Positions 3,660 through 36,849 of a stretch of 64,000 nucleotides of DNA are shown piece by piece (the first letter of the stretch is position 1; each line of letters starts with the position of its first letter). The notes under the pieces are model-generated. The model saw only the letters and a list, made by a program, of their open reading frames with translations, had not been told where the DNA came from and ran no database searches. Source of the DNA: Sumerlaeia bacterium (lineage in GTDB: Bacteria; Sumerlaeota; Sumerlaeia; SLMS01; JAHLLQ01); NCBI GenBank assembly GCA_040219255.1, contig JAVJSW010000042.1, forward strand, positions 1 through 64,000, written 5' to 3'. Both the position numbers and the translations under genes were made by a program.

Positions 3660-4120
3660 GCGGCGCCCACTCCTCCCCCGCCGCCGGGCTCGGCCGCTTC
3701 GACTGCGCCGTCGTATGCGGCCGCAACGACCACCCCCACTTCGTTGAGGGCTGGCACGACCGCGAGCGCGACGGCCGCTGTGGAGTCAGCTATCGCGCCG
3801 CCAACGGCTCGGGCCTGCTGCGCCTGCGCCGCCAACCGGGCGCGCGCAGGCTCCACCTCCTCCTCAGCGGCCCCGCCGGCCTTACCCCGAGTCCCCTCGC
3901 CGGCCTGCTCGCCTTCCCCACCAGCCAAAGCCCCCCGCACCCTCTCAGCCTCCACCACGACCAATGGGCCCTGCGGGAAATCGCTCTGCCCGGCGATCTC
4001 GCGGGCGACACGATCGACCTGCGGCTGACGCTGGAGTCGCCCCCCTGTCCCGATGAAGTCTTGCGCAACGGCGACGGGCGGCGGCTGGGGTGGTACGTGG
4101 CGGGAGTTTGGCAGGGGTAA
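3656..4120 (+). CDS. hypothetical protein (GWH.RE beta-sandwich-like domain)
   Basis: ATGA coupling to the previous gene; C-terminal part of ORF 3149..4120. Confidence 0.6.
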   Translation: MSGAHSSPAAGLGRFDCAVVCGRNDHPHFVEGWHDRERDGRCGVSYRAANGSGLLRLRRQPGARRLHLLLSGPAGLTPSPLAGLLAFPTSQSPPHPLSLHHDQWALREIALPGDLAGDTIDLRLTLESPPCPDEVLRNGDGRRLGWYVAGVWQG

Positions 4121-4186: not shown

Positions 4187-5443
4187 CTACTCTGTCATTC
4201 CAGCGAATTCCTCCCACATCGCGGCTTCGAGGCGTCCCAATCCGATTCGCAGTTCGTCTTCCGACACGACGAGCGGCGGGGCCACAAGCAACACCCGGCC
4301 CAGGCCCCCGAGAAGTAAACCATGGCGGCGCAGGATTTCCTGCATGCGGTGCGCGAAGGGATGGAGACCGGAGTCGGGGATGGCATTGGCCGCGATTTCC
4401 AGCCCGTAGAAGAGACCCCATCCGCGCACTTCGGCCACACGCCGGGGTCCAAGGCGCCGTGCCATTCCCTCAAGGCCTTGACGGAGGAATACGCTGCGTT
4501 CACGGGTGCGTTCCAGAAGGTCTTCGTCTTCGAGAATCCCGATAATCGCTGCCCCCACGCGGCAGCCGAGGTCGTATCCATCGAACGTCTGGCCGTGCAG
4601 GAGCGTGCGCCCGCGAAGAGCCGCCGACGTGCGGTGTCCGTGGAGGAGTGCGGCCAGGGGGACGAGCCCGGCGCTGAGTCCTTTGCCGAGCGCGATCAGA
4701 TCCGGCTCCATGCCCCACAGTGCAGCTCCGCTCCAATGCCCGCAGCGGCCGATGCCGCTGACGACTTCGTCGGCGACCAGAAGAATGCCCTCCTGTCGAC
4801 AGCGCCCGGACACCCAGGGCCAGAAACCGTCGGGAGGCACAAGGCACTGATTGCTGATGACAGGTTCGGCGATGAGGGCGGCGATCCGTGCTCCATGCTG
4901 GCGGAGCACCCGTTCGAGTTCTTCCTCATCGAAGGCTTCGATCCACAGATGGCGGTCGTCATGCCGGCCAAATGGCTCCGCCAGTTCCCGGTACCCTGTC
5001 GCCGCCAGGGCCCCCAGAGCCATGCCATGGTAGGAGCGGCGGAAACTGACGATCAGTGGCCGCGCGGTGACGAGACGGGCGATCTTAATGGCCGCCTCGA
5101 TGGCCATGGTGCCGCTGGTCATGAGTTGGACGGTCTCGACATCACAATCGGAGAAGCGCTCTCGCAGCATCTCGCAAAAGGGTTCGACCGAGGCGCTCTG
5201 GCCGAAGCGGAGGTTGAGGAAGAGGCTTTCGGCGGCAGCCTCCTGGACAGCGCGGATGGCGCGAGGATGGCGATGACCGAGGTTGGTGTTCCAGTACTGC
5301 GAACTGAAGTCGAGGTAGCGGTGGCCCTGGTTGTCGGTAAGCCAGCAGCCCTCGCCGTGGGTGAAGATGGCTGACTGATCGGCGAGTTCCCGAAAACCGG
5401 CGAGAAAAACGGGCGCGCCGGGCGCATCAGGCGATGGAAACAT
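4187..5443 (-). CDS. class III PLP-dependent aminotransferase
   Basis: G..YLDF, LGHRHP, SGTMAIEAAIK, SYHG, ADEVVSGIGRCG, PDLIALGKGL (catalytic Lys), VRGWGL. Confidence 0.92.
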   Translation of the reverse strand: MFPSPDAPGAPVFLAGFRELADQSAIFTHGEGCWLTDNQGHRYLDFSSQYWNTNLGHRHPRAIRAVQEAAAESLFLNLRFGQSASVEPFCEMLRERFSDCDVETVQLMTSGTMAIEAAIKIARLVTARPLIVSFRRSYHGMALGALAATGYRELAEPFGRHDDRHLWIEAFDEEELERVLRQHGARIAALIAEPVISNQCLVPPDGFWPWVSGRCRQEGILLVADEVVSGIGRCGHWSGAALWGMEPDLIALGKGLSAGLVPLAALLHGHRTSAALRGRTLLHGQTFDGYDLGCRVGAAIIGILEDEDLLERTRERSVFLRQGLEGMARRLGPRRVAEVRGWGLFYGLEIAANAIPDSGLHPFAHRMQEILRRHGLLLGGLGRVLLVAPPLVVSEDELRIGLGRLEAAMWEEFAGMTE

Positions 5444-6437
5444 GGGCGGCTTCCCGGGTTGGGGGGATAGGCATCGCGCTGGCGGGCAGAGCGAGGCGCC
5501 GGGAAGGCCGGGCCCCAACCCGCAACGGCCAGGTCAAAAGGTGGTAGAACGGCCAGAAGACGCGGGCCAGGGCGTGGCGGCGCCACCCGAGAGGCCGCCC
5601 ATAGGCCGCGTTGAATTCACCGCGGCCGGCGACGGCCCACCGAGCGGCCTCGCGAGCCGTCCACCGCCACCCCCGCGTTCGCAGCGCCAGGTAAGGCCGC
5701 GTCCATTCGAGATAGCGAAACACGCGATCGAAGTCATCGAAAGGCCGATGGCGGCCATGAGGGGCCATCGTGTGGATGGCATGCGTCTCCGGCAGAATCT
5801 CGCCTCGCCACCCTTCCCGGAATAGCCTCAGGCACAGGTCCACGTCCTCGATGCCGTGGCCGTAGAAGGGATCGAACCCTCCGCCGCGGAGCAGAGGCTC
5901 GCGACGCCAAAGGCTGCAGCACGACGTGACGAACTCCGGCGCTTCCCAATCGCTGCGCCAGCGCGGCAGATCGGCATGCAGCGCGCGCGTCACATAGCCT
6001 CCGAAGATGAACGGGTCGTCATGCTCACGGGTCCGCCAGATGAGCGGCCCCACGGCGAGCAACTCGCTGTTCTCTTCCAGCCGCTTGGCGAAGCTCGCCA
6101 CGGCGCCAGGCGTTTCGATCCAGGCATCGGAATCGATCAGAAGAACGTAATCGGACTGGCTCATGGACAACGCCAGATTGCGCGCCAAGCCGGGACCCGC
6201 GTTGCCGCGCAGACGCCATGCGCTCAGCGGATAGCCCTGGCCGGTTGCGCACTGGCGCACGGTCCGCTCCGCCAGCCACGACGCGGTTCCGTCCCGCGAG
6301 CCATCGTCGATCACGATCACGCGAAACGAGAACTCGGGAGGGATCACCTGGCGGTCCAGGGAATCGAGGCATCGCCCCAGTTCCTCGCGCCGGTTCCAGG
6401 TGACCACGATGGCGGTGATGCTGGCGTTTGAAATCAT
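5427..6437 (-). CDS. glycosyltransferase family 2
   Basis: IVVTWN, VIDDGSRDGT, ARNLAL, DSD (DxD), GGFDP...EDVDLCLR. Confidence 0.9.
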   Translation of the reverse strand: MISNASITAIVVTWNRREELGRCLDSLDRQVIPPEFSFRVIVIDDGSRDGTASWLAERTVRQCATGQGYPLSAWRLRGNAGPGLARNLALSMSQSDYVLLIDSDAWIETPGAVASFAKRLEENSELLAVGPLIWRTREHDDPFIFGGYVTRALHADLPRWRSDWEAPEFVTSCCSLWRREPLLRGGGFDPFYGHGIEDVDLCLRLFREGWRGEILPETHAIHTMAPHGRHRPFDDFDRVFRYLEWTRPYLALRTRGWRWTAREAARWAVAGRGEFNAAYGRPLGWRRHALARVFWPFYHLLTWPLRVGARPSRRLALPASAMPIPPTREAAHVSIA

Positions 6438-7231
6438 GAGCGTTTGCGAAGCACAAGGGCCGAAGCGATCTGGCCGGAGGGCGGTGTTCGCAGCAGTGCT
6501 GTCGCGGCGTCGAAGAGAGGAAGCCATCCGAGGATTTCCAGTTCCGGGGCTGCATCCAGAGCCCTCTCGACCCAACGGCGGGAGAGCATGCGCAGCAGGC
6601 CCCCATCCCGCAAGAGCACCGAAGCGCGCGAGGTGCTGGCGACGATCTTGTAATCGAAGCGGAGCAGGTCCCGCTCCCCCGGCCCGCACTCTGGCAGCAG
6701 CGTGAACCAGGATCGTGTCTGGATGGCGCCGCGGCGCGCGTCCCATACCGCCGCGTGAGGCACGACAGAGGCTGGGTCTTCGGCGGAAACGGCCACCAAT
6801 AGGGCGATGCCTCCCACGCGGAGTACCCGGCCCAGTCCACCGAAGAAACGCTGGGCCGCCTCCATCCGCCAGAGCAGCCCCACGGCACCCAGGGAACCGA
6901 GACAGGCCGCGAAGCGCGCATCCCCTGCCATCCTCAGATCGCCCATATCGGCCTGGAAAGCCGCGATCGCATGGGCCCGGCAGGCGCGCAGCATGGCCGG
7001 GGCGCGATCGAGAACGACCGGGCTCCAGCCGCGCTCTCGCAGCGGCCGAGCCACGCGCCCGCTGCCACCGGCCAGATCCAGCAGAAGTCCTCCCGCAACA
7101 CCGAAACGCCGCAGCAGCCCATCGTAAAAGTCGATCTCGCCCGGATAGACATCGTGGTAGGAGGCCTCGTAGAGTTCTGGCCAATCATAGGTCCGCTGAG
7201 CGACCAGACTGCCCGGAGGACGGTCCGGCAT
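6434..7231 (-). CDS. class I SAM-dependent methyltransferase
   Basis: LLDLAGGSGRVA, D..PAML, QADMGD, LRVGG; ATGA-coupled to the GT2. Confidence 0.85.
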   Translation of the reverse strand: MPDRPPGSLVAQRTYDWPELYEASYHDVYPGEIDFYDGLLRRFGVAGGLLLDLAGGSGRVARPLRERGWSPVVLDRAPAMLRACRAHAIAAFQADMGDLRMAGDARFAACLGSLGAVGLLWRMEAAQRFFGGLGRVLRVGGIALLVAVSAEDPASVVPHAAVWDARRGAIQTRSWFTLLPECGPGERDLLRFDYKIVASTSRASVLLRDGGLLRMLSRRWVERALDAAPELEILGWLPLFDAATALLRTPPSGQIASALVLRKRS

Positions 7232-7267
7232 GGGAGACGGCAGGACTTCGAAAGGGGCAATCTCTTC

Positions 7268-8125
7268 ATGGCGGCAGGCAGCGGCATCGAATTCGGAGGC
7301 GAGGACGAGACGCTGCTGCGTCATCCGCGCTATTGCGACCTGTCCTACCGCGGCATTTTGCCCGGGGAACCGGCCTTTCTGGCGGCTCTCCTGCGGGGTT
7401 ACTCGATCCGGTCCGCGCCTTGTCGCCTGCTCGAGCTGGGCGCAGGCTGGGGCCGCATCGCTGTGCCGCTGGCGGCGGAATTCGGCTTCTCCGTGACGGC
7501 CCTCGACCGCGAACCGGCCATGCTGACTTACTTGAGCGAGCGCGCCGGAAACCTGCCCCTGCGCTGCGTCCAGGCGGACATGACCCGCTTTCGTGGCGAA
7601 GACTGCGGAGGACCCTTCGATGCGGTGCTCTGCCCCCTGGGAATCGCGAACCTGATCTGGGTCGAGGACGATTTCGCCAGCATGCTCACTTCCATCCAGG
7701 CGGCACTGCGGCCCGGCGGCGTCTTTATCGCCAGCCTCAACGCGGCCCCTAGCCCCGACAGCCTCGGGCAGGCCGGAGCCACTTGGGAAACGAAGGCGGA
7801 AGGCGTCCGCACGCGAACCGAGTTCACCCTTCTCGGCAGAGGCGAATTGCGCGTCGCCTCGCACCGCGTCCTGGTCAACGACTCCTCGCCGGCGGGCGGT
7901 TCCGCCGGAATCCGGCGCGACCTGCTTTGGCGGGCGCGGGTGCGCATCGTCGGCGAGGCCTTTCTCCGCCGTATGGCCCTCCGCGTGGCGGGAATGCGGC
8001 TCATCGCCTGGCACCGTCCCTTCGATCACGAGCACGCCCTCTCCGAACCCAACGCCACAGCCGGGTTCAACTTCGCTGTCTGGAGGCACGAGCCCGCCCA
8101 GAGAGGCTCTTTGCCCGGCGCGTGA
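7268..8125 (+). CDS. class I SAM-dependent methyltransferase, paralog-like of 6434..7231
   Basis: LLELGAGWGRIA, DREPAML, QADMTRF, FDAVLC, LRPGGVF. Confidence 0.85.
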   Translation: MAAGSGIEFGGEDETLLRHPRYCDLSYRGILPGEPAFLAALLRGYSIRSAPCRLLELGAGWGRIAVPLAAEFGFSVTALDREPAMLTYLSERAGNLPLRCVQADMTRFRGEDCGGPFDAVLCPLGIANLIWVEDDFASMLTSIQAALRPGGVFIASLNAAPSPDSLGQAGATWETKAEGVRTRTEFTLLGRGELRVASHRVLVNDSSPAGGSAGIRRDLLWRARVRIVGEAFLRRMALRVAGMRLIAWHRPFDHEHALSEPNATAGFNFAVWRHEPAQRGSLPGA

Positions 8126-9138
8126 AGCGACACGAGCCGGCAAGCCGCACACGGCGAGGAGGGCGGATCGGCGGCGATTCTCCGCTCCAGTTCCCCGTCC
8201 AGTTCCGACAACTCTTCCAAAGCCGCCAGGGGCCCTCGCCACCGGAGAGTCTCCAGGATCGGCGAGTTGTAGCGGCGGCGGAAAATCGTGTTCAGGCCCT
8301 CGACGCGCGCGTTGCCAAGACGGTGACGCGAGCGCCCCTCCGCTGGAATCGTCCAGCCCGGGCCGCAGGCGTAGACTTCCCCGTCGCACCCGATCAGGGG
8401 CACATCGATCTTTCCGCAGGGCACCGCCGGGTCGACGCGGGGCAGGAGTTCCGGGTGGCGGCTCGCCCGGCCGCCATCGGTCATGGGCGTCACGACACAT
8501 CCCACGTCCAGACTCCCGCAGGCCGCCATCAACTCGGCGGGCACGGGCTGTGCCATCCCGAATTCATCGCGCTCGGCGGTGTAGCAAAGCGAAACATGTA
8601 AACCCTGGGCCCGCACCGCTGCCATGCCGCGAATCAAGGTTTCCAAATCGACAAATCGCGTGTGGGCCCGATCAGTCGAAAACATCACCGTGCCACTGCC
8701 TTCCAGAGTTTCCGCGCCTCGCGCCGCCTCCGATTCGCTGCCGGCCCAGGCCCCCGACGTCACGACCGTCGGGATCATGCCGAGGCGCCGTGTCTCGCGG
8801 ATTCCGAGCGTGAGCAGTCGCGGCTCCAGCAGAGGTTCGCCACCGAACAGACAAACCCATCGCGTCCGCCCCAATTCCGCCAGCTCCGCCAGAACTGTCT
8901 TCAGCAGTTCTTCCTCCATCTGTTCTCCCCGAGCCGGGTGGGAATTCGTGATACAATGAAAGCACGCCAGGGGGCATCGAAGTGTCAGGAAAATCTCCAC
9001 TGCCTGCCAGGGTGTCCGTTCCTCGCGGAAGTAGTTGATGCGCTGTGCCTGGCCCGGCTCGTACTGGCCGAGTAGGGCCGGATGGCTGGGGTCGTCGGCG
9101 ATGGGGCGCTCTGGCGGCTGTGGGTTCTCCGCACTCAT
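8026..9138 (-). CDS. radical SAM protein, EpeE/YydG-like with twitch-type C-terminus
   Basis: CPLACFHC, GGEP, STDRAH, C...DGEVYACG, C-terminal CAAC. Confidence 0.88.
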   Translation of the reverse strand: MSAENPQPPERPIADDPSHPALLGQYEPGQAQRINYFREERTPWQAVEIFLTLRCPLACFHCITNSHPARGEQMEEELLKTVLAELAELGRTRWVCLFGGEPLLEPRLLTLGIRETRRLGMIPTVVTSGAWAGSESEAARGAETLEGSGTVMFSTDRAHTRFVDLETLIRGMAAVRAQGLHVSLCYTAERDEFGMAQPVPAELMAACGSLDVGCVVTPMTDGGRASRHPELLPRVDPAVPCGKIDVPLIGCDGEVYACGPGWTIPAEGRSRHRLGNARVEGLNTIFRRRYNSPILETLRWRGPLAALEELSELDGELERRIAADPPSSPCAACRLVSLHAPGKEPLWAGSCLQTAKLNPAVALGSERACS

Positions 9139-10004
9139 CGGAAGGCCTCGAGATGGTCACGGAGAAACGTTTCCAGTCCCCTGGGCGGACGGCCCATCAG
9201 GCGCTGAAAATCGGGCGTGGACTCGGGCCGATTGCCTTCGCGATAGAAGGTGTAAATCTCCTCCATCGGCGCGGCGATGGAATCGGGCACACCCCATGCC
9301 AACAGCGACGCCCGCATCGCCGCGGGTGAGCGATCTTCGAGGCGCACCTCTCTCCCCAGCAGGTTTTCCAGAAGCCGGGCGACGTCGGCCATCGTCACGC
9401 AATCGTTGCTCGTGATGGCCGGACAATCGGGCAACGGAACGTCCTCGCAAAGCAGATGCGCCGCCGCCGCGGCCACGTCGCGGGCGTCGATCCAGGGCAC
9501 TCGTCCCCTGCCGAAGGGGTTCGGCAGGACGGACCGCTCGCGAACGGAGCCCGCGTCCTCCAACAAGTTCTGCATGAATGTGCCCGGCCGAAGGTGAACC
9601 ACCGGCAATCGCACCGCGTCCAGCGCCTGGTCGGCGCGGGCGTGCCAGCGCAGAACTTCCACTGGCGCCTCGGCGGCGGCCCCTTTGCCAGAGATGTTGA
9701 CAATGCGCAGAAGGCCCAAGCGGCGAGCCTCCTCTGCGAAGAGCGGCGCGTGCGCCAGCTTCGGAGGGTCGAGGGCCGACAACAGCATCGCCCGCCGCAC
9801 GCCGGCCAAGGCCCGCACCACACTCGCTCGGTCGCCCAGATCCCCGATGCAAACCTCCGCTCCGGCGCTTACGAGGGCGTGCACCTTCGACGCATCCCGA
9901 GTGAAAGCGCGCACCGATTCCCCCCGCGCCAGGAGCAGGCGGGCCACTTCGCCGCCGACGCGGCCGCTGGCCCCGATTACCAGAACGGGCTCTCGATCCA
10001 CCAT
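9135..10004 (-). CDS. NmrA-like / atypical SDR NAD(P)H-binding protein
   Basis: VLVIGASGRVG, LRPGTFMQN, IDARDVA. Confidence 0.9.
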   Translation of the reverse strand: MVDREPVLVIGASGRVGGEVARLLLARGESVRAFTRDASKVHALVSAGAEVCIGDLGDRASVVRALAGVRRAMLLSALDPPKLAHAPLFAEEARRLGLLRIVNISGKGAAAEAPVEVLRWHARADQALDAVRLPVVHLRPGTFMQNLLEDAGSVRERSVLPNPFGRGRVPWIDARDVAAAAAHLLCEDVPLPDCPAITSNDCVTMADVARLLENLLGREVRLEDRSPAAMRASLLAWGVPDSIAAPMEEIYTFYREGNRPESTPDFQRLMGRPPRGLETFLRDHLEAFR

Positions 10005-10007
10005 ACC

Positions 10008-11768
10008 CTAAGCCTCCGATCTCGCCAACGGGGAAAGCCAGCCGGGCGAAGTCTCCGCAGCAGCCGGAGGCGCTCTGTCCGCCAACGGCTCGAGCCGGCC
10101 TCTCTCCATCGTATAGCGGCGAGCCGCCAACGCCAGAGCCCGGGGACTGTGGGTAATGAGCAGTACGGCGCGGTTGCCGGCGTGCAGGCGCAGCGACTCC
10201 AGCGCCAGTGCTTCCGTATAGGAATCGAGGGCCGCGGTCGGTTCGTCCAGAACCCAGAGCCGCGCGTCCCCCAGGAGCAGGCGGGCGAGCGCCAGGCGCT
10301 GGAGTTGACCACCCGACAAGGCACGCTCCGCCCCCAGCGTTTCGTCGAGTCCCAAGCTATCGAGTCCGAGCGCGTCGAGAGCCCGGCGCATGGCGGCGCC
10401 AGTGGCGCCCGGTTCCGCTGCCAGCAAGTTCTCGCGGACCGTCAGCGAGAAAACCGACGGCGTTTGAAGAGCCACCGCTACCCGGCCGGGCCAGCCGCAG
10501 GCGGCCTGCGGGTCGGGGCCTTGCCCTTCAAATCGCACTGCGCCGCGATTTGGCAGCACAAGCCCCGCCGCCAGTTTACCGAGCGTGCTCTTGCCACAGC
10601 CGCTGGGACCTGTCACCGCCACCCATTCGCCCGGTGCGATGCGCAAATCCAGATCCCGCGCCACGTCCGGGCCGTCAGGGGAATAGCGAAACCAGACGCC
10701 GTCCAACTCAAGGCTCCGGCGGTTCGCTCCTGGCTGGGGCGGCGGCGCCTCGTTAGGCTCCTCCGTGCCAGCCGGTTCGAGAAACGCCATCAACCGCGAC
10801 CAGGCCGCCACGCCGTAGCTCCAGCCCTGAACGTGGCTGTAGAGCGCCATCGAGAGCACTGTCACGCCCCCGAGAAAAAACTCCAGAATGCCGAGCGCCG
10901 TCCCCAACGTGATCCGCCCCGTCACGAGTCTGGAAAACGTGTGCAGCATGAGGCCCACAACCAGCGCCGCGAACAGCAGCTTGCAGAACAGCCGCACCGC
11001 TTCGGCCTGGCGCCGGTGGGTGCGCTCGCATTCATAGCGGCCCCGATAGGCGGCGCGCATCGCCAATAGGAGCGCTCCGTTAATCCCGCCGAAGCAGGCC
11101 AGACTCTCGCGCGCGGCGCACAATTCGCCCCCCAGCGCCAGGACCCGGGCTTCGGCGCTCTGCACATCTTGCGCGCGCCGCGTCAGCCGCCGATTGGCCC
11201 AGGCGATTCCCGCCGCCACCGGCAATCCAGCCCCGACCACGATCAGCGCTGCCGAAGGCGAGAGCATGGCCAACAGACACAAGAGGACGATAAGAGCCAG
11301 CCCATCCGCCACCAGTCCGGGCGCGGTGGTGGAAGCGAGCTTTTCGGCAAGCCTCAATTCCGCCGTCAGAGCGCTCGCCATTTCGGCGCCGCGCTTCGGC
11401 GTCAGTCGAAGGGTGAGGCGCTCCATAAGGCGCTCGCGCAGACGTTCGCCCGCCCGTTCCTGCGTCGCCAAAACCCGCAGCGACCACACTCGCGTCAGCC
11501 CGGCCGTCAATAAAAACAGCAGCCCCCAAAGACCCGCCACGGCCCAGACCTGGGAAGCCCAACCGGGTGCGGCGGAGCCCGCCCCCGTAGCGCCACGGCT
11601 CATCCCATCGACCACCCATTTCCAAAAGAAGGGGTAGAACAGCAGCGGCGCCCGCAGCGCCATCTCCATGGCCACGCAAACCGCCATCGCGGGCGCCAAC
11701 TCGCGGCCAAAGGCCACCAGGGGAAACGCTCCCTGCTCCGGGAGCAAGCGCCGCAGGAGATTTGTCAC
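10008..11768 (-). CDS. ABC exporter, fused permease/ATPase (no C39 peptidase domain)
   Basis: N-terminal TM helices; GPSGCGKST, LSGGQ, VLDEPT, ITH; GTG start overlaps the upstream stop. Confidence 0.9.
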   Translation of the reverse strand: MTNLLRRLLPEQGAFPLVAFGRELAPAMAVCVAMEMALRAPLLFYPFFWKWVVDGMSRGATGAGSAAPGWASQVWAVAGLWGLLFLLTAGLTRVWSLRVLATQERAGERLRERLMERLTLRLTPKRGAEMASALTAELRLAEKLASTTAPGLVADGLALIVLLCLLAMLSPSAALIVVGAGLPVAAGIAWANRRLTRRAQDVQSAEARVLALGGELCAARESLACFGGINGALLLAMRAAYRGRYECERTHRRQAEAVRLFCKLLFAALVVGLMLHTFSRLVTGRITLGTALGILEFFLGGVTVLSMALYSHVQGWSYGVAAWSRLMAFLEPAGTEEPNEAPPPQPGANRRSLELDGVWFRYSPDGPDVARDLDLRIAPGEWVAVTGPSGCGKSTLGKLAAGLVLPNRGAVRFEGQGPDPQAACGWPGRVAVALQTPSVFSLTVRENLLAAEPGATGAAMRRALDALGLDSLGLDETLGAERALSGGQLQRLALARLLLGDARLWVLDEPTAALDSYTEALALESLRLHAGNRAVLLITHSPRALALAARRYTMERGRLEPLADRAPPAAAETSPGWLSPLARSEA

Positions 11769-13438
11769 GTCCGCGCCGCCTCCCGCTCCCCGGCAAGAGA
11801 CTGGCCCTCTCGCAGCGCGTTGTAGAGCCTCATCATCTCCCATTCGTACTCGTACATCTGGCGGCGTGAAAAGCGGTACATTTCCTGCAGAATTCGCATC
11901 TCCACCTCCACCGGATCGGCAAGCACCGCGTCGTCCGCAGCCAAGCCAGCAACCAATTCGCGCGGAATCCAGCCATAGGTCGCGGCTAACACCAACATCT
12001 GGAGCGAGCGCCGCACGGGGTCCGAGCGCGGGACAACGGGTTGCGTCGTGACGTCCTCCGGGCCAGGATGGTCCCCCTCGCCCAGGACATCGTCCGAGCC
12101 GATCCAGCCATCGCGAAGGGCCCATTGCGTGATCTCGCACTCCTTCTGGTACATCAGCGTATTCGCATCCATGCCGAAAGGTTGGGGCAAACTCAGGAAG
12201 AAGGCGACAGCTTCGCGGAGATCGTCCACCGTCTCGTAGGGGTTATCGGTGATAATCTCGTAGGTCACAAACATCCGATGGTGCCATTTAGCCGCCAGAG
12301 CTTGCAATTCCGCGTTTGTCTCCGGGCGGTGGTAAACCTCGCGGCGGGCGCGCTCGCAGCCTGTCTGAATGCCCAGGATAACGCTGTCGAGCCCGGCGGC
12401 GATCAGGGCCTCCATGTTCTCATCGGTCATCAACCGCCCATGGGTGATAACGGTCAGCGGCAATCCCACCCGCTCCTTGTAGAGGGCGGCGAATTCCGCC
12501 ACCCAGTCCCGGTCCACGGGAAAGATCTCGTCCCAGAACCCGACTCGCTTTTTGCCCGTGCTCAGGGCCAACCGGGCGTGCTCCACCGCGCGCCCGGGCG
12601 ACATCATACGGTAGGACAGCCCTCGGCCGCTGAGCGAACGGACCTCGCGGTTTCGCCAGCAAAACGTGCAGGCGAACCAGCACCCGCGCGCCGCCATCAC
12701 ATCGTGCTGATAAGCCGCACTATTGATCTTTCCGCCATCGCATTTCGCCAGTTTGTTTTCAAAGTAATCGCGCAAATCGGTGGGAATCAGGATTTCATCC
12801 CCGGTGCGTTCGTAGGTCGTCGCCGGAAGGGCATCCAACTGCGCCGGGGTAAGGAATGGGCGGAGCGGATTGCGGTGAATTTCGCCGGCATCGCTCCTGT
12901 ACCAAAGGCCCTTGATGGCGGAAAAGTCGCGTCGGCCGCTCTTGAACTCCTCCGTCAGCGCCACGGCCACTTCTTCGCCCTCACCGGTGCAGACCGCATC
13001 GGCGTGCCGCAGGCAAAATTCGGGCTGACTGATGGCATAGTAGCCGCCCCACACCACCGGAGCGTCGCAAACCTCGCGCACGGCGGAGGTCAATCGCCCG
13101 GCCACATGATTGATCGGCGCCAGGACGCTGAACCCAATCCAGCATGGATCGAGACCCGCCACCGTATCTTGCAGAGCCCGCACCTCCCCCGGGTCCAGTG
13201 GCGGACGCACCAGCGGCGGCTTGACCCAAAAGGGCTGGAACAGGCTGTAGTCGGTGTCTTTCTCGAAAGGCAGAAGCTTGCCGAAACGGATGACCTTGCA
13301 GTCGTGCCCCGCTTGCTTCAGAACCCCGTGAATCCAGCGTAAGTTGAGATTCGTGAAACCATCGTAAAGCGTGATCAGGACGACCGGGCCGGAGCGCGGC
13401 GGCGCCATCGGTACGGGAGCAAGGCCTTGCGCGGTCAT
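11765..13438 (-). CDS. cobalamin-dependent radical SAM protein (copy 3)
   Basis: B12-binding N-domain (VVWGG, GEGEE), RGCWFACTFC, FWDEIF, GIQTG. Confidence 0.92.
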   Translation of the reverse strand: MTAQGLAPVPMAPPRSGPVVLITLYDGFTNLNLRWIHGVLKQAGHDCKVIRFGKLLPFEKDTDYSLFQPFWVKPPLVRPPLDPGEVRALQDTVAGLDPCWIGFSVLAPINHVAGRLTSAVREVCDAPVVWGGYYAISQPEFCLRHADAVCTGEGEEVAVALTEEFKSGRRDFSAIKGLWYRSDAGEIHRNPLRPFLTPAQLDALPATTYERTGDEILIPTDLRDYFENKLAKCDGGKINSAAYQHDVMAARGCWFACTFCWRNREVRSLSGRGLSYRMMSPGRAVEHARLALSTGKKRVGFWDEIFPVDRDWVAEFAALYKERVGLPLTVITHGRLMTDENMEALIAAGLDSVILGIQTGCERARREVYHRPETNAELQALAAKWHHRMFVTYEIITDNPYETVDDLREAVAFFLSLPQPFGMDANTLMYQKECEITQWALRDGWIGSDDVLGEGDHPGPEDVTTQPVVPRSDPVRRSLQMLVLAATYGWIPRELVAGLAADDAVLADPVEVEMRILQEMYRFSRRQMYEYEWEMMRLYNALREGQSLAGEREAART

Positions 13439-15219
13439 TGGGCCGGGCTCTTTCCCGCCATGGGGGCGCTGCCCAATTGGCTGGCGAAGGTGTGCATGTT
13501 GGCCTCGTACTCGTGCATCGTGTGGCGCGTGTGGCGATACAACTCCGTCAGCAGCAACACCGCGAGGCGGCGGTCGTTGGAAAGGAGCGCGTCGTCTTCG
13601 AACCATCGGCGCAACTTCTCGCGAGGGATGAAGTCGTATTGGGTGGCGACGATCAGCATCGTGAGCGCCCGCTTGCGAGCGTCCCTGCGTGGCAGAAACC
13701 CGGTGCAGGTGACATCCTGGTAGCCCAGTTCGGCCCGCGAACCGAGCACCTGGTCCTCGCCGATAAGCCCCGCTGCCAAGGCTTTCTTCGTGATGTCCTG
13801 ATTCCGAAAGTAAAGCAGCGTGTTCGTGTCGACGACGAAGTGATGAGGAAAGGCGATGAACAGTTCGAAGGAAGCGCGCAGGTCCTCTTCCGTCTCAAAG
13901 GGATTGTCGATGATCGTGTCGTAACAGCACCAGGCGTGTTTGTTCAAAATCCGCGCGCCTTCGAGGATTTCCTCGTTCGTTTCGTTTCGGCCGTAGACCT
14001 CGCGGCGCACGCGTTCGCTGCCGCTCTGAAAGCCCATGTTGCACGAATCCATTCCCGCATCGGCCAGAAGCCGCACGTTTTCCTCGCGAACCATCTTCGG
14101 GTGGAAGTTCACGGAAAAAGGCAGGCCGATCTCGGCCTTGTAGAGTGCGCAGAACTCGCGCAACCAATCGGTGTCGTAAGGGAAAATGTCCTCCCAAAAG
14201 ACGAAGCGCTCCTTGCCCAGGCGATCCTTCGCGTCCTTCAGGTACTCGACAATCCAGCGCGGGTCGGCGGGGCGGTAGTAAAGGCCCTGGCCTCGTTCGC
14301 GCCCGATCTGCACGTTGTGAAAACAGAACGTGCAGGTGAAAAAGCAGCCCCGGGTGAAGAGCACATCGTGCACCACGGTGGCGCTGTTGCTCTTGCCGCC
14401 GTCCGCTTTTGCCTGATTCACGTACCATGTCAGGGCGTTCTCCGGCACGAACAGTTCGTCCTCGGTACGCTCGAAAAACAGCAGGGGAAGGGCTTCGAGT
14501 CGCTCCGCCGGAAGAAGCGGGCGCCTGGGCTCGCGCTCGATTTCGCCGTCCCGCCCCCTACGCCACAAACCCGCGATTCCCGCCAAACCCCGTTGATCGC
14601 GCGCTTTTAGCCGGCCGCTGATCTCGACGGCCACTTCCTCGCCCTCTCCCACACAGACCGCGTCGGCGTGCTGGAGGCACCATTCCGGTTCGTTGATCGC
14701 CATGTATCCGCCCCAAACGAGCGCCACCCCGCCGCCCAGCCGCTCGCGCAGGCGCCGCGTCAGATCCGCCGCCACGTGGTTGTGCGGCGCGATAACGTTC
14801 AGCCCGACCCACAGAGGCTCCAGCGCCGCGACTCGCTCCACCAGCGCCTCGGCGTCGGCTTCCCGATACGCGGGCCGCGCCAGGGGAAACTTCACCTTCA
14901 ATGTCTGGAACAGCGAGTAATCCAGATTATGCTCGTAAGGCACCGTGTGGCCAAAGCGGATGATCTTGGCGCTGTGACCACCCCCAACCAGCGCCGCGTA
15001 AAGGTAGCGCATGCTGATGTTCATTTGCCCGTCGTAGAGCGTGATCAGCACCACCGGCGGCCCGGAGACAGGGGTCGAGGCATCGCGCACGCGCTGGCAG
15101 GCCTCTTCGGCAGTGGCGGGAGGACAGGTAGAGCGCGCCGCATCCGCGGACGCGCCGCCAAATCGGGCGAATGGGCCGCCGGCTTTGACTTTGCGGGTTT
15201 CGGAGCGAGCGGCGCTCAT
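13435..15219 (-). CDS. cobalamin-dependent radical SAM protein (copy 2)
   Basis: LVWGG, GEGEE, RGCFFTCTFC, FWEDIF, GFQSGS. Confidence 0.92.
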   Translation of the reverse strand: MSAARSETRKVKAGGPFARFGGASADAARSTCPPATAEEACQRVRDASTPVSGPPVVLITLYDGQMNISMRYLYAALVGGGHSAKIIRFGHTVPYEHNLDYSLFQTLKVKFPLARPAYREADAEALVERVAALEPLWVGLNVIAPHNHVAADLTRRLRERLGGGVALVWGGYMAINEPEWCLQHADAVCVGEGEEVAVEISGRLKARDQRGLAGIAGLWRRGRDGEIEREPRRPLLPAERLEALPLLFFERTEDELFVPENALTWYVNQAKADGGKSNSATVVHDVLFTRGCFFTCTFCFHNVQIGRERGQGLYYRPADPRWIVEYLKDAKDRLGKERFVFWEDIFPYDTDWLREFCALYKAEIGLPFSVNFHPKMVREENVRLLADAGMDSCNMGFQSGSERVRREVYGRNETNEEILEGARILNKHAWCCYDTIIDNPFETEEDLRASFELFIAFPHHFVVDTNTLLYFRNQDITKKALAAGLIGEDQVLGSRAELGYQDVTCTGFLPRRDARKRALTMLIVATQYDFIPREKLRRWFEDDALLSNDRRLAVLLLTELYRHTRHTMHEYEANMHTFASQLGSAPMAGKSPAQ

Positions 15220-16949
15220 GAGGCGGCCTCCCGGCAACCGGCGGCAGCCGCGGGTGACGTGCCTTTGGGGGCGGCGCTCGCGCGGCCAGCCGCCGGCTGG
15301 GACGTTTGGGCAAGCGCAATGCGCGCAAGTTGGCGCTCGAGGCGGAACCGTGCGTCACGCTCCTGGAAGTAAAGCCGCCTCGCTTTGCCATAGAGCCGGA
15401 AGGAGATCGTCTGCTTCAGCCGGAGAGGATCGTCGAGAAGCACATCATCGTCCATCCAGGCGGCGATTTCATCACGGGCAATAGCGTCTCCGTGCTGGGT
15501 TGCGACCATCAGCAGATAGAGATTCGCCTGACGCGTCGTCCGCCGCGCCTGGAGATAGTTGCACGGATCGAAACCGTCGGCCAGCTTCCACGTCAGCTCG
15601 GGCTGGGCGATCAGACCGTCGCGCAAGGCTCGCTCCGTAATCGAGCACCCAGGCAGATAGGTAAAGCTATTCGTCGCGATCTTGAACGGCGTGGGGAAAC
15701 GCAGGAACAGTTCGATGTTGGCGCGCCAATGCTCCTCCATCTCGTAAGGCGGATCCACGATCATGTCATAGGTCATGTCGATGCGGCTGTTCAGTTTGCG
15801 GGCCGAATCGAGGATTTCTTCGTCGGTCTCGAAGCGGTGGTAGTATTCCGCGCGAAAGTGCTGACTGCCGCTCTGAATGCCGCACACGGCGGAGACGCAG
15901 CCGCTGCCGACGATGAGGTCGATAAAGCTCTCGTCGGTGTGCTTGGGGTGGAAATAGCAGAAATACGGAACGCCGACGCGCCTTGGATACTCGGCGGCGA
16001 ACTCCTCGAGCCACTCGCGGTCGAGGCTGAAGATGTCGTCCCAGAAGGCGACGAAGCGCTTACCGAGAACATCCCGGGCGTGGACGCACTCCTCGATCAC
16101 GCGGCCCACCGATTTGCGCCGGATGTAGCGTCCGTTTCCCCTGTACATTTGGGCCAGCGGCTCGTTGAAACAGAACGTGCAGCGATAGGGACAGCCCAGC
16201 CCGGTCATGATCGTGCGGGGCGTGAAGTTGTCCAGGTCCTCGCTGACACAGCGGGCGGCGGCGCGCTCGCGGGCATCCCGGGGAACCATCAAGGTGTCTT
16301 CGGAGCGGAAAGGAAAAAATCCGATCGAGTCAAGGTCGCGGATCAGGGGCCGAAGGGCGTTGCGCCGCGTCGTGCCATCGGGCCGCAAAGTGGCCACGTT
16401 GGGGACGGCGGAGAAATCCCGCTCGCCCGCCGCCGCCAGCCTCGCCAGATCGACCATCGCCTCTTCGCCCTCGCCCACCACCACGGCGTCCGGGCCGCCG
16501 GGGTCTTGCAGGGATTCCTCCGGCGCGAAGGTCGGATGGACTCCGCCCCAGATCACCGGAGCCCGCGTAACGCGCCGCGCCACCTCAGTGATCCGCACGC
16601 ACGTTTGATAGGACGGCGAAAGAACGCTGATCCCGACCAGAGTCGGATCGAGACGCCGCAGATGCTCCGCCAACTCGTCCAGGTCCTCCGGCGAAGGCAC
16701 ATTGAACCAAGTCGGCGCGTCGAAATCCATGCACTGAAACAGCAGCACCTCCTCCGTATTCGGAGTTGGCGCGGAAATGCCGAACTGGATGACCATCGCG
16801 GGCTGACCATCCTGGCGCAGCGCGGCGTAGAGTCGCCGCACGCCGACCGCCGAGTCCCAATCGTAAACGGTTATCAAGACCACCGGGCGCGGCGACGGGT
16901 CCGCTTCGCACGGTGCGTTTCGCGCGGCCTCGTGTCCAATATCCTGCAA
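15216..16949 (-). CDS. cobalamin-dependent radical SAM protein (copy 1); alternative start at 17072
   Basis: VIWGGVHPT, GEGEE, GCPYRCTFC, FWDDIF, GIQSGS; TTG at 16949 has an AGGAAAGGG RBS. Confidence 0.92.
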   Translation of the reverse strand: MQDIGHEAARNAPCEADPSPRPVVLITVYDWDSAVGVRRLYAALRQDGQPAMVIQFGISAPTPNTEEVLLFQCMDFDAPTWFNVPSPEDLDELAEHLRRLDPTLVGISVLSPSYQTCVRITEVARRVTRAPVIWGGVHPTFAPEESLQDPGGPDAVVVGEGEEAMVDLARLAAAGERDFSAVPNVATLRPDGTTRRNALRPLIRDLDSIGFFPFRSEDTLMVPRDARERAAARCVSEDLDNFTPRTIMTGLGCPYRCTFCFNEPLAQMYRGNGRYIRRKSVGRVIEECVHARDVLGKRFVAFWDDIFSLDREWLEEFAAEYPRRVGVPYFCYFHPKHTDESFIDLIVGSGCVSAVCGIQSGSQHFRAEYYHRFETDEEILDSARKLNSRIDMTYDMIVDPPYEMEEHWRANIELFLRFPTPFKIATNSFTYLPGCSITERALRDGLIAQPELTWKLADGFDPCNYLQARRTTRQANLYLLMVATQHGDAIARDEIAAWMDDDVLLDDPLRLKQTISFRLYGKARRLYFQERDARFRLERQLARIALAQTSQPAAGRASAAPKGTSPAAAAGCREAAS

Positions 16950-17105
16950 CGCGGTTCCCTTTCCTGGACAACGGCTCTGGCCGCTCCCCGGCGCGAGCGC
17001 GCCAGGACGAAAAGCGTTGGCACTTCCTGCCCGCCAAAGCGGCGAACGGAATGAACCAAATGCCTGAGCCATCTGTCCGAGGACGAATCAACTACATGGA
17101 TATAA

Positions 17106-18089
17106 TTAGGGCGGAGCGGAAAACGCGTCAACGTCATTCAACTCAGACGCGCTGCAAAGCTGCAATTTCGCGCAGGCCCCGCACTGGCTCGTGAAGGTCT
17201 CGGCTTCCGCCACTATGCCGCGTTCCCTCAGCATTGCCAAAGGGCCCCGCTCCCTCAGTCCCTCGATCAGCGGACTGGATAAAAAACGCGCGCGCCACCG
17301 CTCCTCTCCCTCCGGTTCATCGGCCCGGCCAACGGACAGCGCCTCCATCGCCGCGCCCCCGGAAAAGTAGCTCCCCGCCACGCAGCAGGCGAACACCCGG
17401 CCATCCGGCCGCACCATCATGTTGCCCAGAACGTGACAGGGGCCGTCCGCCTGGCTGGCCGGGACCTCTTCCACGCAGTCCCTGCGCGCGCGGCCCACGT
17501 CCACGGCGGGACAAAAATGCCAGCCCAGCAGCGGGCCGCTCTCCAGCGCCGCCCGCACTTCCGGGTCCAGCAAAGCCAGCCCCGGTTCTTCATCGCGCGC
17601 GTAACTGTAGGAAAGAAATCCCTCGATCCCCGAACTGGCACAGCCCCTCAGCAGCGCCACCACCCGAGACTCCGGCACATAGGAACGGTGCCAACGGTCG
17701 GTCGACACAACAAATCGCTGCAAACCCGGCAGTTCCCCCGCCCAGCGTGCGACTTCCTTGTCATCCCGGGCCCAAAATCCATTGGTGACGATCGTATAGG
17801 GCAACCCCACACCGTGCAGCAACCGGCCCGCGGCGCGCAGCAAGTCCGGCACGACAAACGGTTCTCCCCCAGTCAATTCCACGTGTTTCAGGCGCGGACG
17901 GGCCCCCGCCAAGCTTTCCACCAGCCGCTCCAGCACCGCCAGATCCATCGTGGCTCGATTGGCGGGGCCGCTCCAGGTCCCACAGAACGCGCACTCAGCG
18001 TTGCATCGCCAGGTCAACTGGACACCGATGCTCTCGTGCAGCGGCTTGGGACGATTGGTCGGGTGGGTGGCGGGTTGGGCTGGGGACAA
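17106..18089 (-). CDS. radical SAM protein, EpeE/YydG-like (candidate epimerase)
   Basis: RCNAECAFC, TGGEPF, TNGFW, STDRWH, VGRA, C...DGRVFACC, FTSQCGAC; GGAGA RBS before TTG. Confidence 0.9.
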   Translation of the reverse strand: MSPAQPATHPTNRPKPLHESIGVQLTWRCNAECAFCGTWSGPANRATMDLAVLERLVESLAGARPRLKHVELTGGEPFVVPDLLRAAGRLLHGVGLPYTIVTNGFWARDDKEVARWAGELPGLQRFVVSTDRWHRSYVPESRVVALLRGCASSGIEGFLSYSYARDEEPGLALLDPEVRAALESGPLLGWHFCPAVDVGRARRDCVEEVPASQADGPCHVLGNMMVRPDGRVFACCVAGSYFSGGAAMEALSVGRADEPEGEERWRARFLSSPLIEGLRERGPLAMLRERGIVAEAETFTSQCGACAKLQLCSASELNDVDAFSAPP

Positions 18090-18193
18090 GGAACGTTTTT
18101 CTCCAAAGTGATGGCGTGGTATCGCCCCTGTCCTTCAGCTTGCCTCGCACCTTGAAGGTGGGCGTTGACCCCGCCGGCAGAACTCCTTCGCCA

Positions 18194-19261
18194 TCAGCAC
18201 CCGACGACTCGTCCGCCAGTGCCCAGGCGCCGGTCGCGGTGGTCGACGAGTCGTTCGCGCATGCCACCGTAAACCGTGTCCTTCGAGGTATGGTTCAGGA
18301 AGTCATGGGGAAAGCCCAACTCGATCCTGCTGACGTCGTCGAGGCGCTGGAGCTGCTCGCAACTCAGCTTGAAGTCCAGGCATGTCAGGTTGTCCTTCAA
18401 CTGATCCACGCGCCGCGCGCCCACGATGGGGATGATCTGGTTGTTCTGGGCCCGCAGCCACGCCAGCGCTACGGCTGCCGGGGACTTGCCGACCTCCTCC
18501 GCTACGGCGACCACTTCACGGGCGATGGCCATGTTGCGCTCGCTCAGTTTACCGCTGTCGGCACCCATACGGCGCGCCTCGTCCTCCGCCTTTTTCAGAT
18601 ACTTGCCTGTCAGCACGCCGCCGCCCAGCGGCGACCACGGCGTCACCGCCAGATCGAACGCCCGCGCCATCGGCAGCAGATCGCGCTCGGGCGTGCGCTC
18701 GACCAGACTGTACTCGATCTGGAGCGCGCAGAACGGCGTCCAGCGGCACAGTTCCGCCATGGTGTTGCACTGCGCCACGACCCAGGCCGGGGCGTCACTG
18801 ATGCCGACGTAGAGGATCTTGCCCGCCCGCACCAGATCGTCCAGCGCGCGCATCACCTCGTCCACCGGCGTCAGGAAATCCCATGCGTGAATCCACAGCA
18901 GGTCGATGTAATCGGTCTTCAGCCGCTTGAGGCAGCCCTCCACCGTTTGCACCAGGTTCTTGCGATGGTTGCCGCCCGCGTTCGGATCGGTGCCGCGGGT
19001 CATAGTCATCGTGTATTTCGTGGCCAGAACCAGGTAATCGCGGTGCGCGGGAATCATCTCACCCAGAAACTTCTCGCTCGTGCCGTTGGTGTAGATGTTG
19101 GCCGTATCGACGAAGTTTCCGCCGGCTTCGAGGTACGCATCGAAGACCGCGCGGCTGCCCTCCAGATCCGCACCCGAATTCCATTCCGTCCCGAACGTCA
19201 TCGCGCCCAGGCAAAGTTCGCTGACGCGCAGGCCGCTGCGTCCCAACAGGTAGTAATCCAT
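18194..19261 (-). CDS. aldo/keto reductase
   Basis: LGRSGLRVSELCLGAMTFG, DTANIY, YIDLLWIH, WSPLGGGVLTGKY. Confidence 0.95.
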   Translation of the reverse strand: MDYYLLGRSGLRVSELCLGAMTFGTEWNSGADLEGSRAVFDAYLEAGGNFVDTANIYTNGTSEKFLGEMIPAHRDYLVLATKYTMTMTRGTDPNAGGNHRKNLVQTVEGCLKRLKTDYIDLLWIHAWDFLTPVDEVMRALDDLVRAGKILYVGISDAPAWVVAQCNTMAELCRWTPFCALQIEYSLVERTPERDLLPMARAFDLAVTPWSPLGGGVLTGKYLKKAEDEARRMGADSGKLSERNMAIAREVVAVAEEVGKSPAAVALAWLRAQNNQIIPIVGARRVDQLKDNLTCLDFKLSCEQLQRLDDVSRIELGFPHDFLNHTSKDTVYGGMRERLVDHRDRRLGTGGRVVGC

Positions 19262-19438
19262 AACGATCGGTTCTCCCAAACAAAAGGTTCAGCCCCGACT
19301 GTCGCCCGGCCGCCGCTGCGGATCAAGCTGACAAACGACGGTCACCGAAGGGCGTATGAGGCGATTTCGCTGGCCCGGCGAAACCGGCCCGGAGAATGCT
19401 TCTCTCGCCGTGACCTTGACCGCCCGGAGGACTCCCCC

Positions 19439-19621
19439 GTGGAATCGATTCCCACAGCCGAATATCAAGCCATCGTGAACGCCATCGCCAGTGACGCCAG
19501 CCCCGTGGGCATCGATGCAAAACACACTCACGTGCTGATTCTGCACAAGTTACAGAAGATCGAGGAACGCCTCGCCCGCATCGAAGCGCGGATGGACGCG
19601 GCGCCCGAACCGCAAGAATAG
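19439..19621 (+). CDS. small hypothetical protein (60 aa) with C-terminal coiled coil
   Basis: GGAGGA RBS before GTG; SPVGIDAKHTHVLILHKL...IEERLARIE; typical codon usage. Confidence 0.7.
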   Translation: MESIPTAEYQAIVNAIASDASPVGIDAKHTHVLILHKLQKIEERLARIEARMDAAPEPQE

Positions 19622-19653
19622 ACTCGCTTACTTTTTGAAGGAACATTCCCATC

Positions 19654-20112: not shown

Positions 20113-20274
20113 CTTTCCGCCTCCGGTAAACCGCTTTGGCGAATGCATCGGCCTTTCCCGCCTCCCCGCCCCATGGCGGCTTGACCACGCTTTCCTGCTC
20201 GTTCGAAATCCCCTCCACCGTCGCGCATCCCTGAACGCCGCCGGCCAGTCCCCCTCCGGAGCCGACCGATCCCG

Positions 20275-36767: not shown

Positions 36768-36849
36768 GGGCGCGTATCCTGTGCGTCGAAAATGTGTGGC
36801 ATAGTGGTGTGCCGGAGCCAGCGGCGGGCCGTCAAGCCATCGCTGAACC

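Follow-up and report, generated by a model that had tools for sequence, protein, structure and literature searches.

The question raised by positions 4187-18089 of the DNA studied here is what kind of product is modified and exported by a cluster of eleven genes in which five radical S-adenosylmethionine (rSAM) enzymes stand together. The stretch that was analysed (the window) comprises the first 64 kb (positions 1 to 64,000) of the 243,528-bp contig JAVJSW010000042.1 from a Sumerlaeia bacterium, whose genome (assembly GCA_040219255.1) has 5.35 Mb and is 92% complete. Genes were chosen by G+C content at the third codon position (GC3), a codon model and domain matches in this DNA of 64% G+C, which has many open antisense frames. 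All eleven carried the expected Pfam domains above gathering scores, and the ten minus-strand genes and the gene order described in an earlier note on this DNA were borne out by domains and coordinates: from right to left, rSAM1, three B12-binding rSAM enzymes (B12a, B12b and B12c), an ABC exporter, an NmrA-like oxidoreductase, rSAM2, the methyltransferases MTb and MTa, a family 2 glycosyltransferase (GT2) and an aminotransferase. The same note's description likewise stood: a compact, operon-like set, rich in rSAM enzymes, that has an exporter and enzymes for the tailoring of amine, methyl and glycosyl groups. Of the 32 Radical_SAM matches in the genome, five fell within the 13.9 kb of the cluster, where 0.08 were expected (Poisson P ∼3e-8 by our own arithmetic); this clustering is not a matter of chance. 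Our preferred reading, held tentatively and at somewhat less than an even chance, is that of one co-inherited tailoring-and-export system around two rSAM enzymes of the EpeE/YydG type, acting most likely on a peptide whose scaffold would come from elsewhere.

Both small rSAM enzymes had been called EpeE-like in the earlier note, and sequence as well as fold agreed with this. The 327-aa rSAM1 (17106-18089, minus strand; Pfam Radical_SAM) aligned to solved EpeE over residues 19-315 in a PDB sequence search (E 1.4e-12). An AlphaFold2 (AF2) model of it, built on 112 family sequences, had a predicted local distance difference test (pLDDT) score of 90.3. When this model was searched with Foldseek, ranks 1-9 were all EpeE (E ∼3e-19, template-modelling (TM) scores 0.75-0.79). 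The best structure other than EpeE was BlsE (E 1.9e-9, TM 0.56), the sugar-acting twitch enzymes SpeY and BtrN came at ranks 29 and 35, and SpeY, BtrN and DesII had E-values of ∼1e-7; this comparison covered sugar-acting rSAM enzymes with solved structures, NeoN and HygY lying outside it. The YydG model TIGR04078 was the best NCBIfam match of rSAM1 (63.1 bits vs. a cut-off of 300) and was also matched by rSAM2 at 39.3 bits, below the same cut-off. Every one of the 112 aligned members of the family, among them rSAM2, matched it at E ≤ 1e-8, which was true of none of the other models. On these scores, rSAM1 and rSAM2 are homologues of YydG/EpeE and not equivalogs.

The cysteines of rSAM1 comprised the CxxxCxxC motif (C29/33/36) and the auxiliary-cluster residues C218, C235, C303 and C306. 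Each of these seven positions was cysteine in 110-112 of the 112 family members, in keeping with EpeE and its one auxiliary cluster. Over its full length rSAM1 had the fold of an enzyme that, in addition to the rSAM cluster, carries one auxiliary [4Fe-4S] cluster within an extended twitch domain. In EpeE, according to PMC13012085, PMC8326336 and PMC5682303, a single auxiliary cluster is present and Cys223 returns hydrogen to the C-alpha radical. The equivalent of this hydrogen donor in rSAM1 was C236, the second cysteine of 'ACC' (in EpeE, the second of 'PCC'), and the position was cysteine in 103 of the 112 members. The mapping was made via chain 8ai6_A with a 25-residue tag offset; its rSAM-cluster cysteines are at chain positions 39, 43 and 46, which we take to be native EpeE C14/18/21. 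By these features rSAM1 has everything that an epimerase of the EpeE type needs, and it is predicted to be one.

The second enzyme, rSAM2 (370 aa; 8026-9138, minus strand; Pfam Radical_SAM), was 32% identical to rSAM1 over 302 residues and kept all seven cluster cysteines, with glycine at the donor position. Its nearest relative, P0065 (45% identical), had alanine there. The two were among the nine of 112 members without the donor cysteine, and they alone carried a cysteine seven residues upstream of it, in the motif CDGxVYAC. Judged from this alignment, rSAM2 belongs to a distinct and rare subfamily that has lost the donor cysteine; the relocated upstream cysteine might still serve as donor. 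As rSAM2 is without the usual cysteine to quench the radical, its reaction would be expected to end differently, and a two-electron oxidation to a carbonyl would be the most useful outcome.

Downstream of such a carbonyl, an amine-forming set of enzymes could act. The class III (omega-type) pyridoxal phosphate-dependent aminotransferase (418 aa; 4187-5443, minus strand; Pfam Aminotran_3, 252.7 bits) matched the NCBIfam families PRK06062 (235.8 bits), acetylornithine aminotransferase (208.5 bits) and daptide aminotransferase (207.3 bits, cut-off 450). Two class I SAM methyltransferases, both with Pfam Methyltransf_25, accompany it: MTb (285 aa; 7268-8125, plus strand) and MTa (265 aa; 6434-7231, minus strand), which are paralogous (32% over 170 aa). 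The best NCBIfam match of MTb was the daptide N-methyltransferase (67.8 bits, cut-off 175; next family at 34.8), and that of MTa was the daptide methyltransferase (39.3 bits). The PDB matches of MTb included CcbJ, PCZA361.24 and CalS10, which we take to be N-methyltransferases, and MTb is likely to be an amine N-methyltransferase. A peptide is favoured as the substrate on two grounds: in sequence as in fold, and with a wide lead, the signature enzymes have a single characterised relative, a peptide C-alpha epimerase for which neither a leader nor a RiPP recognition element (RRE; RiPP, a peptide made by ribosomes and modified after translation) is needed, and the amine-forming pair is nearest to the daptide enzymes, which lead from a peptide ketone to a dimethylamine.

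The following course of events is proposed. The C-alpha hydrogen would be abstracted by rSAM1 and one would be given back on the opposite face by Cys236, leaving D-residues as EpeE does, while the three B12-binding enzymes would methylate unactivated carbons. The carbonyl left by rSAM2, or alternatively one supplied or adjusted by the NmrA-like reductase or the adjoining aldo/keto reductase, would be converted into an amine by the aminotransferase. This amine would be N-methylated by MTa/MTb in the order of the daptide pathway, which according to PMC10036551 runs from ketone through transamination to dimethylation. GT2 would attach a sugar, and the ABC half-transporter would export the product. 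The gene for the substrate may lie elsewhere in the genome or past the left end of the contig, which is 4 kb away, or it may be too small or unusual for the ORF scan described below. A 'heavily methylated' product, as the earlier note had it, may be supposed from this; B12-binding rSAM enzymes catalyse reactions other than methylation too. We further suggest, as a more daring and on the whole doubtful proposal, that the epimerase reaction is split within this EpeE-type pair, rSAM1 epimerising and rSAM2 oxidising the radical to a carbonyl that is then transaminated and N-methylated. Together with the three B12-binding enzymes this would give an undescribed class of D-configured, C-methylated, dimethylamino, glycosylated and exported metabolite, peptide or not, without a recognisable leader or RRE and from a phylum of which little is known.

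Several results weigh against a peptide as the substrate. No gene reached the curated NCBIfam cut-off of any named family; as all curated-family scores were far below their cut-offs, every functional label is given by analogy. For the aminotransferase, generic families gave scores no lower than the daptide family did. When 1-24000 was scanned for open reading frames (ORFs) of 20-130 aa, mostly outside called genes, no precursor candidate was obtained and nothing turned up inside the cluster, and the gap between rSAM1 and B12a held no precursor ORF. A Nif11 leader was not found in the genome (the control was positive in 5 of 14 genomes), and the NHLP search of the genome was blank but uninformative, its control having matched nowhere either. 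Pfam and NCBIfam gave no protease or C39 domain and no RRE/PqqD domain, and no daptide dehydrogenase was found in the window. Sugars, too, are among the substrates of cysteine-dependent rSAM epimerases, as in the case of NeoN and HygY. Thus, of the peptide epimerisation and methylation considered in the earlier note, the enzyme side held up, with a full-length EpeE match and daptide-type methyltransferase matches, while precursor, protease and RRE were missing. According to PMC8326336, EpeE itself is without RRE and leader-independent, so that the absence of an RRE here weighs less.

The three B12-binding enzymes, all on the minus strand, are B12a (618 aa from the ATG at 17072; 15216-17072), B12b (594 aa; 13435-15219) and B12c (557 aa; 11765-13438). 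The B12-binding (PF02310; 57.8 bits in B12a) and Radical_SAM (PF04055) domains were above gathering scores in all three. The first ∼55 residues of B12a had no counterpart in its orthologues, and B12c was a paralogue of B12b (45-46% identity). At 30-72 bits the three matched the ladderane-type lipid model, ApyD, HpnJ, BchE and others; the RiPP enzymes ApyD and rSAM_ocin_1 were among these matches. For B12a the best were the ladderane-type lipid B12-binding rSAM model TIGR04072 (72.2 bits, cut-off 360), ApyD (64.4 bits) and HpnJ (54.5 bits). For B12b the best was again TIGR04072 (52.4 bits, below cut-off), and its sole PDB sequence match was AprD4. The AF2 model of B12b (pLDDT 74.8) matched TsrM, MgmA, OxsB, AprD4, CysS and TokK in Foldseek about equally, all at TM 0.44-0.55, so that the class is clear whereas subclass and reaction are not.

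Next to them lie the ABC half-transporter (586 aa; 10008-11768, minus strand; Pfam ABC_tran and ABC_membrane) and the NmrA-like NAD(P)-binding oxidoreductase (289 aa; 9135-10004, minus strand; Pfam NmrA, 76.7 bits). The exporter matched CydD (181 bits) and CydC (174 bits) as well as LssB, NHLM exporter and MsbA models, all below cut-off. It had ∼five hydrophobic segments and an ATPase domain in a hydropathy scan, and a peptidase C39 domain was not found in it by Pfam. The oxidoreductase matched the EasG-type family (59.9 bits) and, with its N-terminus only, HpnA (53.5 bits), both below cut-off. These matches bear on a modification of lipid head groups or chains, following the logic of HpnI/J/O/P, of ladderane-type lipids or of other chemistry of B12-binding rSAM enzymes, with the ABC protein as an MsbA-like flippase. 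The TIGR04072 ranking of B12a and B12b, the weak matches to HpnJ, HpnR, HpnA and HpnB and the MsbA matches speak for it. On the other side, the squalene-hopene cyclase model TIGR01507 had no match in the 92% complete genome, no lipid-synthesis genes were found in 1-24000, the Hpn and TIGR04072 scores were far below their cut-offs, and the biosynthetic enzymes, GT2 included, were without hydrophobic segments in the hydropathy scan, the exporter alone having them. We consider a lipid substrate very improbable, and the hopanoid head-group modification put forward in the earlier note found no support, given the lack of a cyclase match, the soluble appearance of the enzymes and the low Hpn scores.

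A sugar or an aminocyclitol, tailored as a small molecule for which no precursor gene is needed, has a better claim and represents a real but smaller possibility than a peptide. GT2 would then add a hexose from primary metabolism to an acceptor, rSAM2 would be a radical dehydrogenase working on a carbinol carbon, the aminotransferase would make the amine and MTa/MTb would N-methylate it. rSAM1 would epimerise a sugar carbon like NeoN and HygY, the B12-binding enzymes would C-methylate or contract a ring, as proposed for GenK/GenD1, PtmH, HpnJ and PtmC, the NmrA-like enzyme would reduce an intermediate, and the ABC protein would export the product. The absence of precursor, protease and RRE would be expected here, and a GT2 with an aminotransferase, N-methyltransferases and an NAD(P) oxidoreductase is the usual amino-sugar toolkit. 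A study of HygY, known to us by its title as cited in PMC10991966, reportedly turned this twitch rSAM sugar epimerase into a dehydrogenase by mutating one cysteine, a switch that fits the rSAM1/rSAM2 pair. B12a had its 54.5 bits to HpnJ, B12b its single PDB match to AprD4, and the PDB matches of MTb include sugar and amino-acid N-methyltransferases (CalS10, CcbJ). In PMC9092360 there are precedents for every enzyme class, the pactamycin and bacteriohopanetetrol (BHT)-cyclitol pathways combining a glycosyltransferase, an oxidoreductase, an aminotransferase, a ring-forming rSAM enzyme (PtmC, HpnJ) and the rSAM C-methyltransferase PtmH.

However, rSAM1 was far closer to EpeE (3e-19) than to BlsE (1.9e-9) or to SpeY, BtrN and DesII (∼1e-7), and the scores to HpnJ (far below cut-off) and AprD4 (E 1.2e-3) were weak. 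No genes for sugar-nucleotide activation, 4,6-dehydratase, cyclitol synthase, deacetylase or DegT-type aminotransferase were found in 1-24000, and no acceptor-building genes were present. The amino-sugar or aminoglycoside-like tailoring of the earlier note keeps the advantage of needing no precursor gene and loses on the affinity of rSAM1, which is to EpeE before any solved sugar rSAM enzyme. The putative step from a carbonyl made by rSAM2 via the aminotransferase to MTa/MTb is common to the peptide and the sugar alternatives.

Whether the cluster is inherited as one system was judged from its distribution elsewhere. An exhaustive phmmer search with rSAM1 against 1.84 billion representatives gave 2654 matches at E ≤ 1e-3. 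At E ≤ 1e-10 there were 569, so that the EpeE-like family in the wider sense is a large one. At E ≤ 1e-30 only three remained: rSAM1 itself, P0034 (48%) and P0035 (41%). The 90% cluster of P0034 has members on a 37,873-bp JGI contig and on a 295,541-bp NCBI contig, and rSAM1 orthologues on contigs of these sizes were 46-48% identical. The same two contig sizes were found for orthologues of B12b (P0005/P0026, 65%; a second orthologue, P0006, had 57%) and of B12a (P0007/P0029, 61%). For the aminotransferase, three orthologues (51, 50 and 48%) stood out, the next best identity being 36%, and the 50% orthologue was on a contig of 295,541 bp. Since 295,541 bp is common to the contigs of the rSAM1, B12a, B12b and aminotransferase orthologues, the set seems to be co-inherited. 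That four very rare families occur on contigs of one size speaks for the presence of a related cluster in one other lineage or more, and the conserved co-occurrence on which the earlier note had made its proposal depend was found in this form. It counts against the single system that an equal contig size is a fingerprint and not a proof of adjacency. The contig-size evidence covers rSAM1, B12a, B12b and the aminotransferase. Slight signs of a few further related clusters came from fragments such as P0006, P0008, P0035, P0065, P0188 and P0190; no B12c orthologue distinct from that of B12b was seen.

Closer to home, counterparts were lacking. The phylum has 75 species representatives, 74 besides the genome of the window, and no counterpart of rSAM1 was found among them, with only generic N-terminal matches in 40 relatives. 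B12b was matched in 28 of the 75 genomes (own included) at E ≤ 1e-40, with a best foreign identity of 37-38%, and eight neighbourhoods of B12b homologues in the phylum had no synteny with the cluster. Two scans of 185,579 species genomes gave no orthologue of B12b or rSAM1: six pattern matches and no relatives with the B12b orthologue P0005, and 45 pattern matches, with four generic N-terminal matches at 32-33%, with the rSAM1-group alignment. A metagenome scan with alignment A1 gave at least 80 generic loci of B12-binding rSAM enzymes, with identities of ≤33% among the matches listed. None of the 80 loci listed matched rSAM1, rSAM2, the aminotransferase or a methyltransferase, and there were three weak GT2 matches and two ABC matches. 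In an island-boundary test of synteny with four family relatives, ThrRS alone was in common. The cluster was ordinary in composition: among random segments as long as the cluster, 13% had a greater tetranucleotide distance, and the G+C content was 0.655 vs. 0.636 for the genome; neither measure gave a compositional sign of recent transfer.

The gene layout bears on the same point. At five of the nine same-strand junctions there were 4-base start/stop overlaps, and the remaining junctions were -17, +3, +33 and a 794-base stretch containing MTb. This gene, the only one on the plus strand, shares 100 bases with the convergent 3' end of rSAM2 and interrupts the run, so that there are at least three transcription units. 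It is accordingly conceivable that two unrelated modules lie side by side, an rSAM operon at 8026-18089 and a glycan or envelope module of MTb, MTa, GT2 and the aminotransferase, the latter belonging with the flanking genes at 2520-3659 and 3656-4120 and with a GT2 at 20275-21279. The break made by MTb and the further glycan-type genes on both flanks (MT0, GT2b) are in its favour. GT2 itself (336 aa; 5427-6437, minus strand; Pfam Glycos_transf_2, 72 bits; NCBIfam EpsD 93.4 and MftF 66 bits, both below cut-off) had only ordinary homologues, at 31-38%, which were spread over 17 of the 74 remaining genomes in the phylum. Yet the rarity pattern of the aminotransferase was like that of the rSAM enzymes, down to the orthologue on a contig of 295,541 bp, and at E ≤ 1e-15 none of the same 74 genomes contained a match to MTb. 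Further, MTa, GT2 and the aminotransferase are joined by overlaps of -4 and -17, and the start of MTa lies 36 bases from the divergent start of MTb. Two separate modules are thus unlikely, and the single tailoring-and-export system is retained.

A possible further member is an aldo/keto reductase (18194-19261, minus strand like rSAM1; Pfam Aldo_ket_red, 248 bits). It stands 104 bases upstream of that gene and has homologues (42-54%) in 6 of 24 relatives. The open frames at 6434-8500 (minus strand, antisense to MTb) and 18116-19621 (plus strand, antisense to the aldo/keto reductase) scored like real genes in a simple codon model; their G+C content was highest at codon position 1, an antisense signature, which makes both of them traps for gene callers. 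Rfam gave no match and no riboswitch at E ≤ 0.1 over 1-24000, and terminator-like sites were below the shuffle mean in a promoter and terminator scan. One DNA sequencing run, probably the source of the contig itself, was found to contain the stretch, and no RNA run was listed for it.

The window starts at contig base 1, which leaves 4 kb of contig on the left side of the cluster. The match of a YitT-like ORF at 163-756 to its Pfam model was confined to the C-terminal half; the left edge is thus truncated, and genes left of the cluster flank may be missing. The left flank (901-4120, plus strand) held a zinc-ribbon/TPR membrane protein, the class I methyltransferase MT0 (2520-3659) with a weak MftM match, and an adjoining 154-aa ORF without family (3656-4120). 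The right flank (19439-21279, plus strand) held a 60-aa ORF, a 152-aa single-pass membrane ORF and GT2b (20275-21279). Some 10 kb from the cluster, positions 28678-38844 contained a 718-aa fusion of a D-Ala-D-Ala-ligase C-terminal domain and a peptidase S58 domain, beside a solute-binding protein, a double oligopeptide-type ABC ATPase, tandem GNAT domains and a GT4; this may be a locus for the handling of D-amino acids or unusual peptides. On contig C68 of the same genome (G000), three B12-binding-domain matches within 28 kb (7250, 22406 and 35093) possibly mark a second locus rich in B12-binding rSAM enzymes.

Elsewhere in the phylum, the nearest EpeE-like gene outside this genome (344 aa, 'CC' kept; locus L112, 8270-9974, on G010:C208) was found in a low-G+C stretch. 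The ORF in front of it has 218 aa and a hydrophobic tail rich in Ala and Val; a gene for a small peptide was not observed. In three phylum genomes an rSAM/SPASM gene (374-399 aa) adjoins a GT2 (L124 5949-8071, L125 6369-8559, L126 6178-8300). The SPASM genes had their best matches, far below cut-off, in TIGR04133, AhbC and NirJ-like models, and the GT2 genes were among the nearest phylum homologues (33-38%) of the GT2 in the window. The L124 pair sits amid housekeeping genes (PheT, GlyRS), and no precursor was found at these pairs.

To our knowledge, EpeE-type epimerases have so far been characterised only for epipeptides. Here the EpeE fold stands in very different enzyme company, in a phylum with 75 species representatives, and this company of the EpeE-like pair is one surprising aspect of the cluster, the natural subfamily without donor cysteine being the other. 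We know of studies of the choice between epimerisation and oxidation in rSAM enzymes with engineered mutants so far; a natural pair with and without the donor cysteine would offer a test of that choice. Were the product a peptide, it would define a new RiPP class that combines epimerisation, B12-dependent methylation and daptide-like amine formation; were it a sugar, EpeE-like enzymes would be extended beyond peptides. Orphan clusters are common in metagenomes, and this one, at 14 kb, is small enough for synthesis and expression.

The earlier note had recognised no described cluster with this set, and none was listed in literature searches on the enzyme set and its known relatives. The nearest comparison is the epipeptide system epeXEPAB (yydFGHIJ) of Bacillus subtilis, which by the title of a study by Popp et al. 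from 2021 is said to be widely distributed in Firmicutes. It shares with the cluster the EpeE-type rSAM enzyme with one auxiliary cluster, extended twitch domain and cysteine donor, the lack of an RRE and ABC export. It differs in that no EpeX/YydF-like precursor or EpeP-type membrane protease was found in or beside the cluster, which has two diverged EpeE-like genes, one without the donor cysteine, and adds three B12-binding rSAM enzymes, the aminotransferase, the methyltransferases, GT2 and the NmrA-like gene. Proteusins are exemplified by polytheonamide (poy), whose enzymes bear Poy names. The logic of radical epimerisation, C-methylation by B12-binding rSAM enzymes, a SAM N-methyltransferase and an exported peptide, as outlined in PMC8326336, is the same; on the other side, no Nif11 leader was found here, the NHLP search being uninformative.

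With daptides (mpaA-D, M, P), as described in PMC10036551, the cluster shares the conversion of a ketone by an aminotransferase dependent on pyridoxal phosphate and then by a SAM N,N-dimethyltransferase. Here, however, the methyltransferase (67.8 vs. 175 bits) and the aminotransferase (207.3 vs. 450 bits) scored well below the cut-offs of the daptide models NF041820/21/22, and no DUF-RRE accessory protein, intramembrane peptidase or precursors (those of daptides end in Thr) were found. Hopanoid Hpn enzymes differ by their scores: 54.5 vs. 577.6 bits for HpnJ, 53.5 vs. 367.65 for HpnA and 27.3 vs. 379 for HpnB. The aminoglycosides and aminocyclitols (gentamicin, butirosin, neomycin, hygromycin B, pactamycin) and the BHT-cyclitol ether made by HpnI/J/K resemble the cluster, according to PMC9092360, in their clustered enzyme classes. 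The classes in common are an rSAM epimerase or dehydrogenase, a B12-binding rSAM enzyme, an aminotransferase, an N-methyltransferase, a glycosyltransferase and an oxidoreductase. Gentamicin and butirosin share these classes. Different here are the lack of scaffold, sugar-activation and deacetylase genes and the rSAM enzymes, which are EpeE-like and not BtrN-like. As defining features of each were looked for and did not appear, the cluster is not an epipeptide, daptide or hopanoid system and probably not a proteusin or aminoglycoside one; some of its logic is nevertheless taken from epipeptide, proteusin, daptide and aminoglycoside systems.

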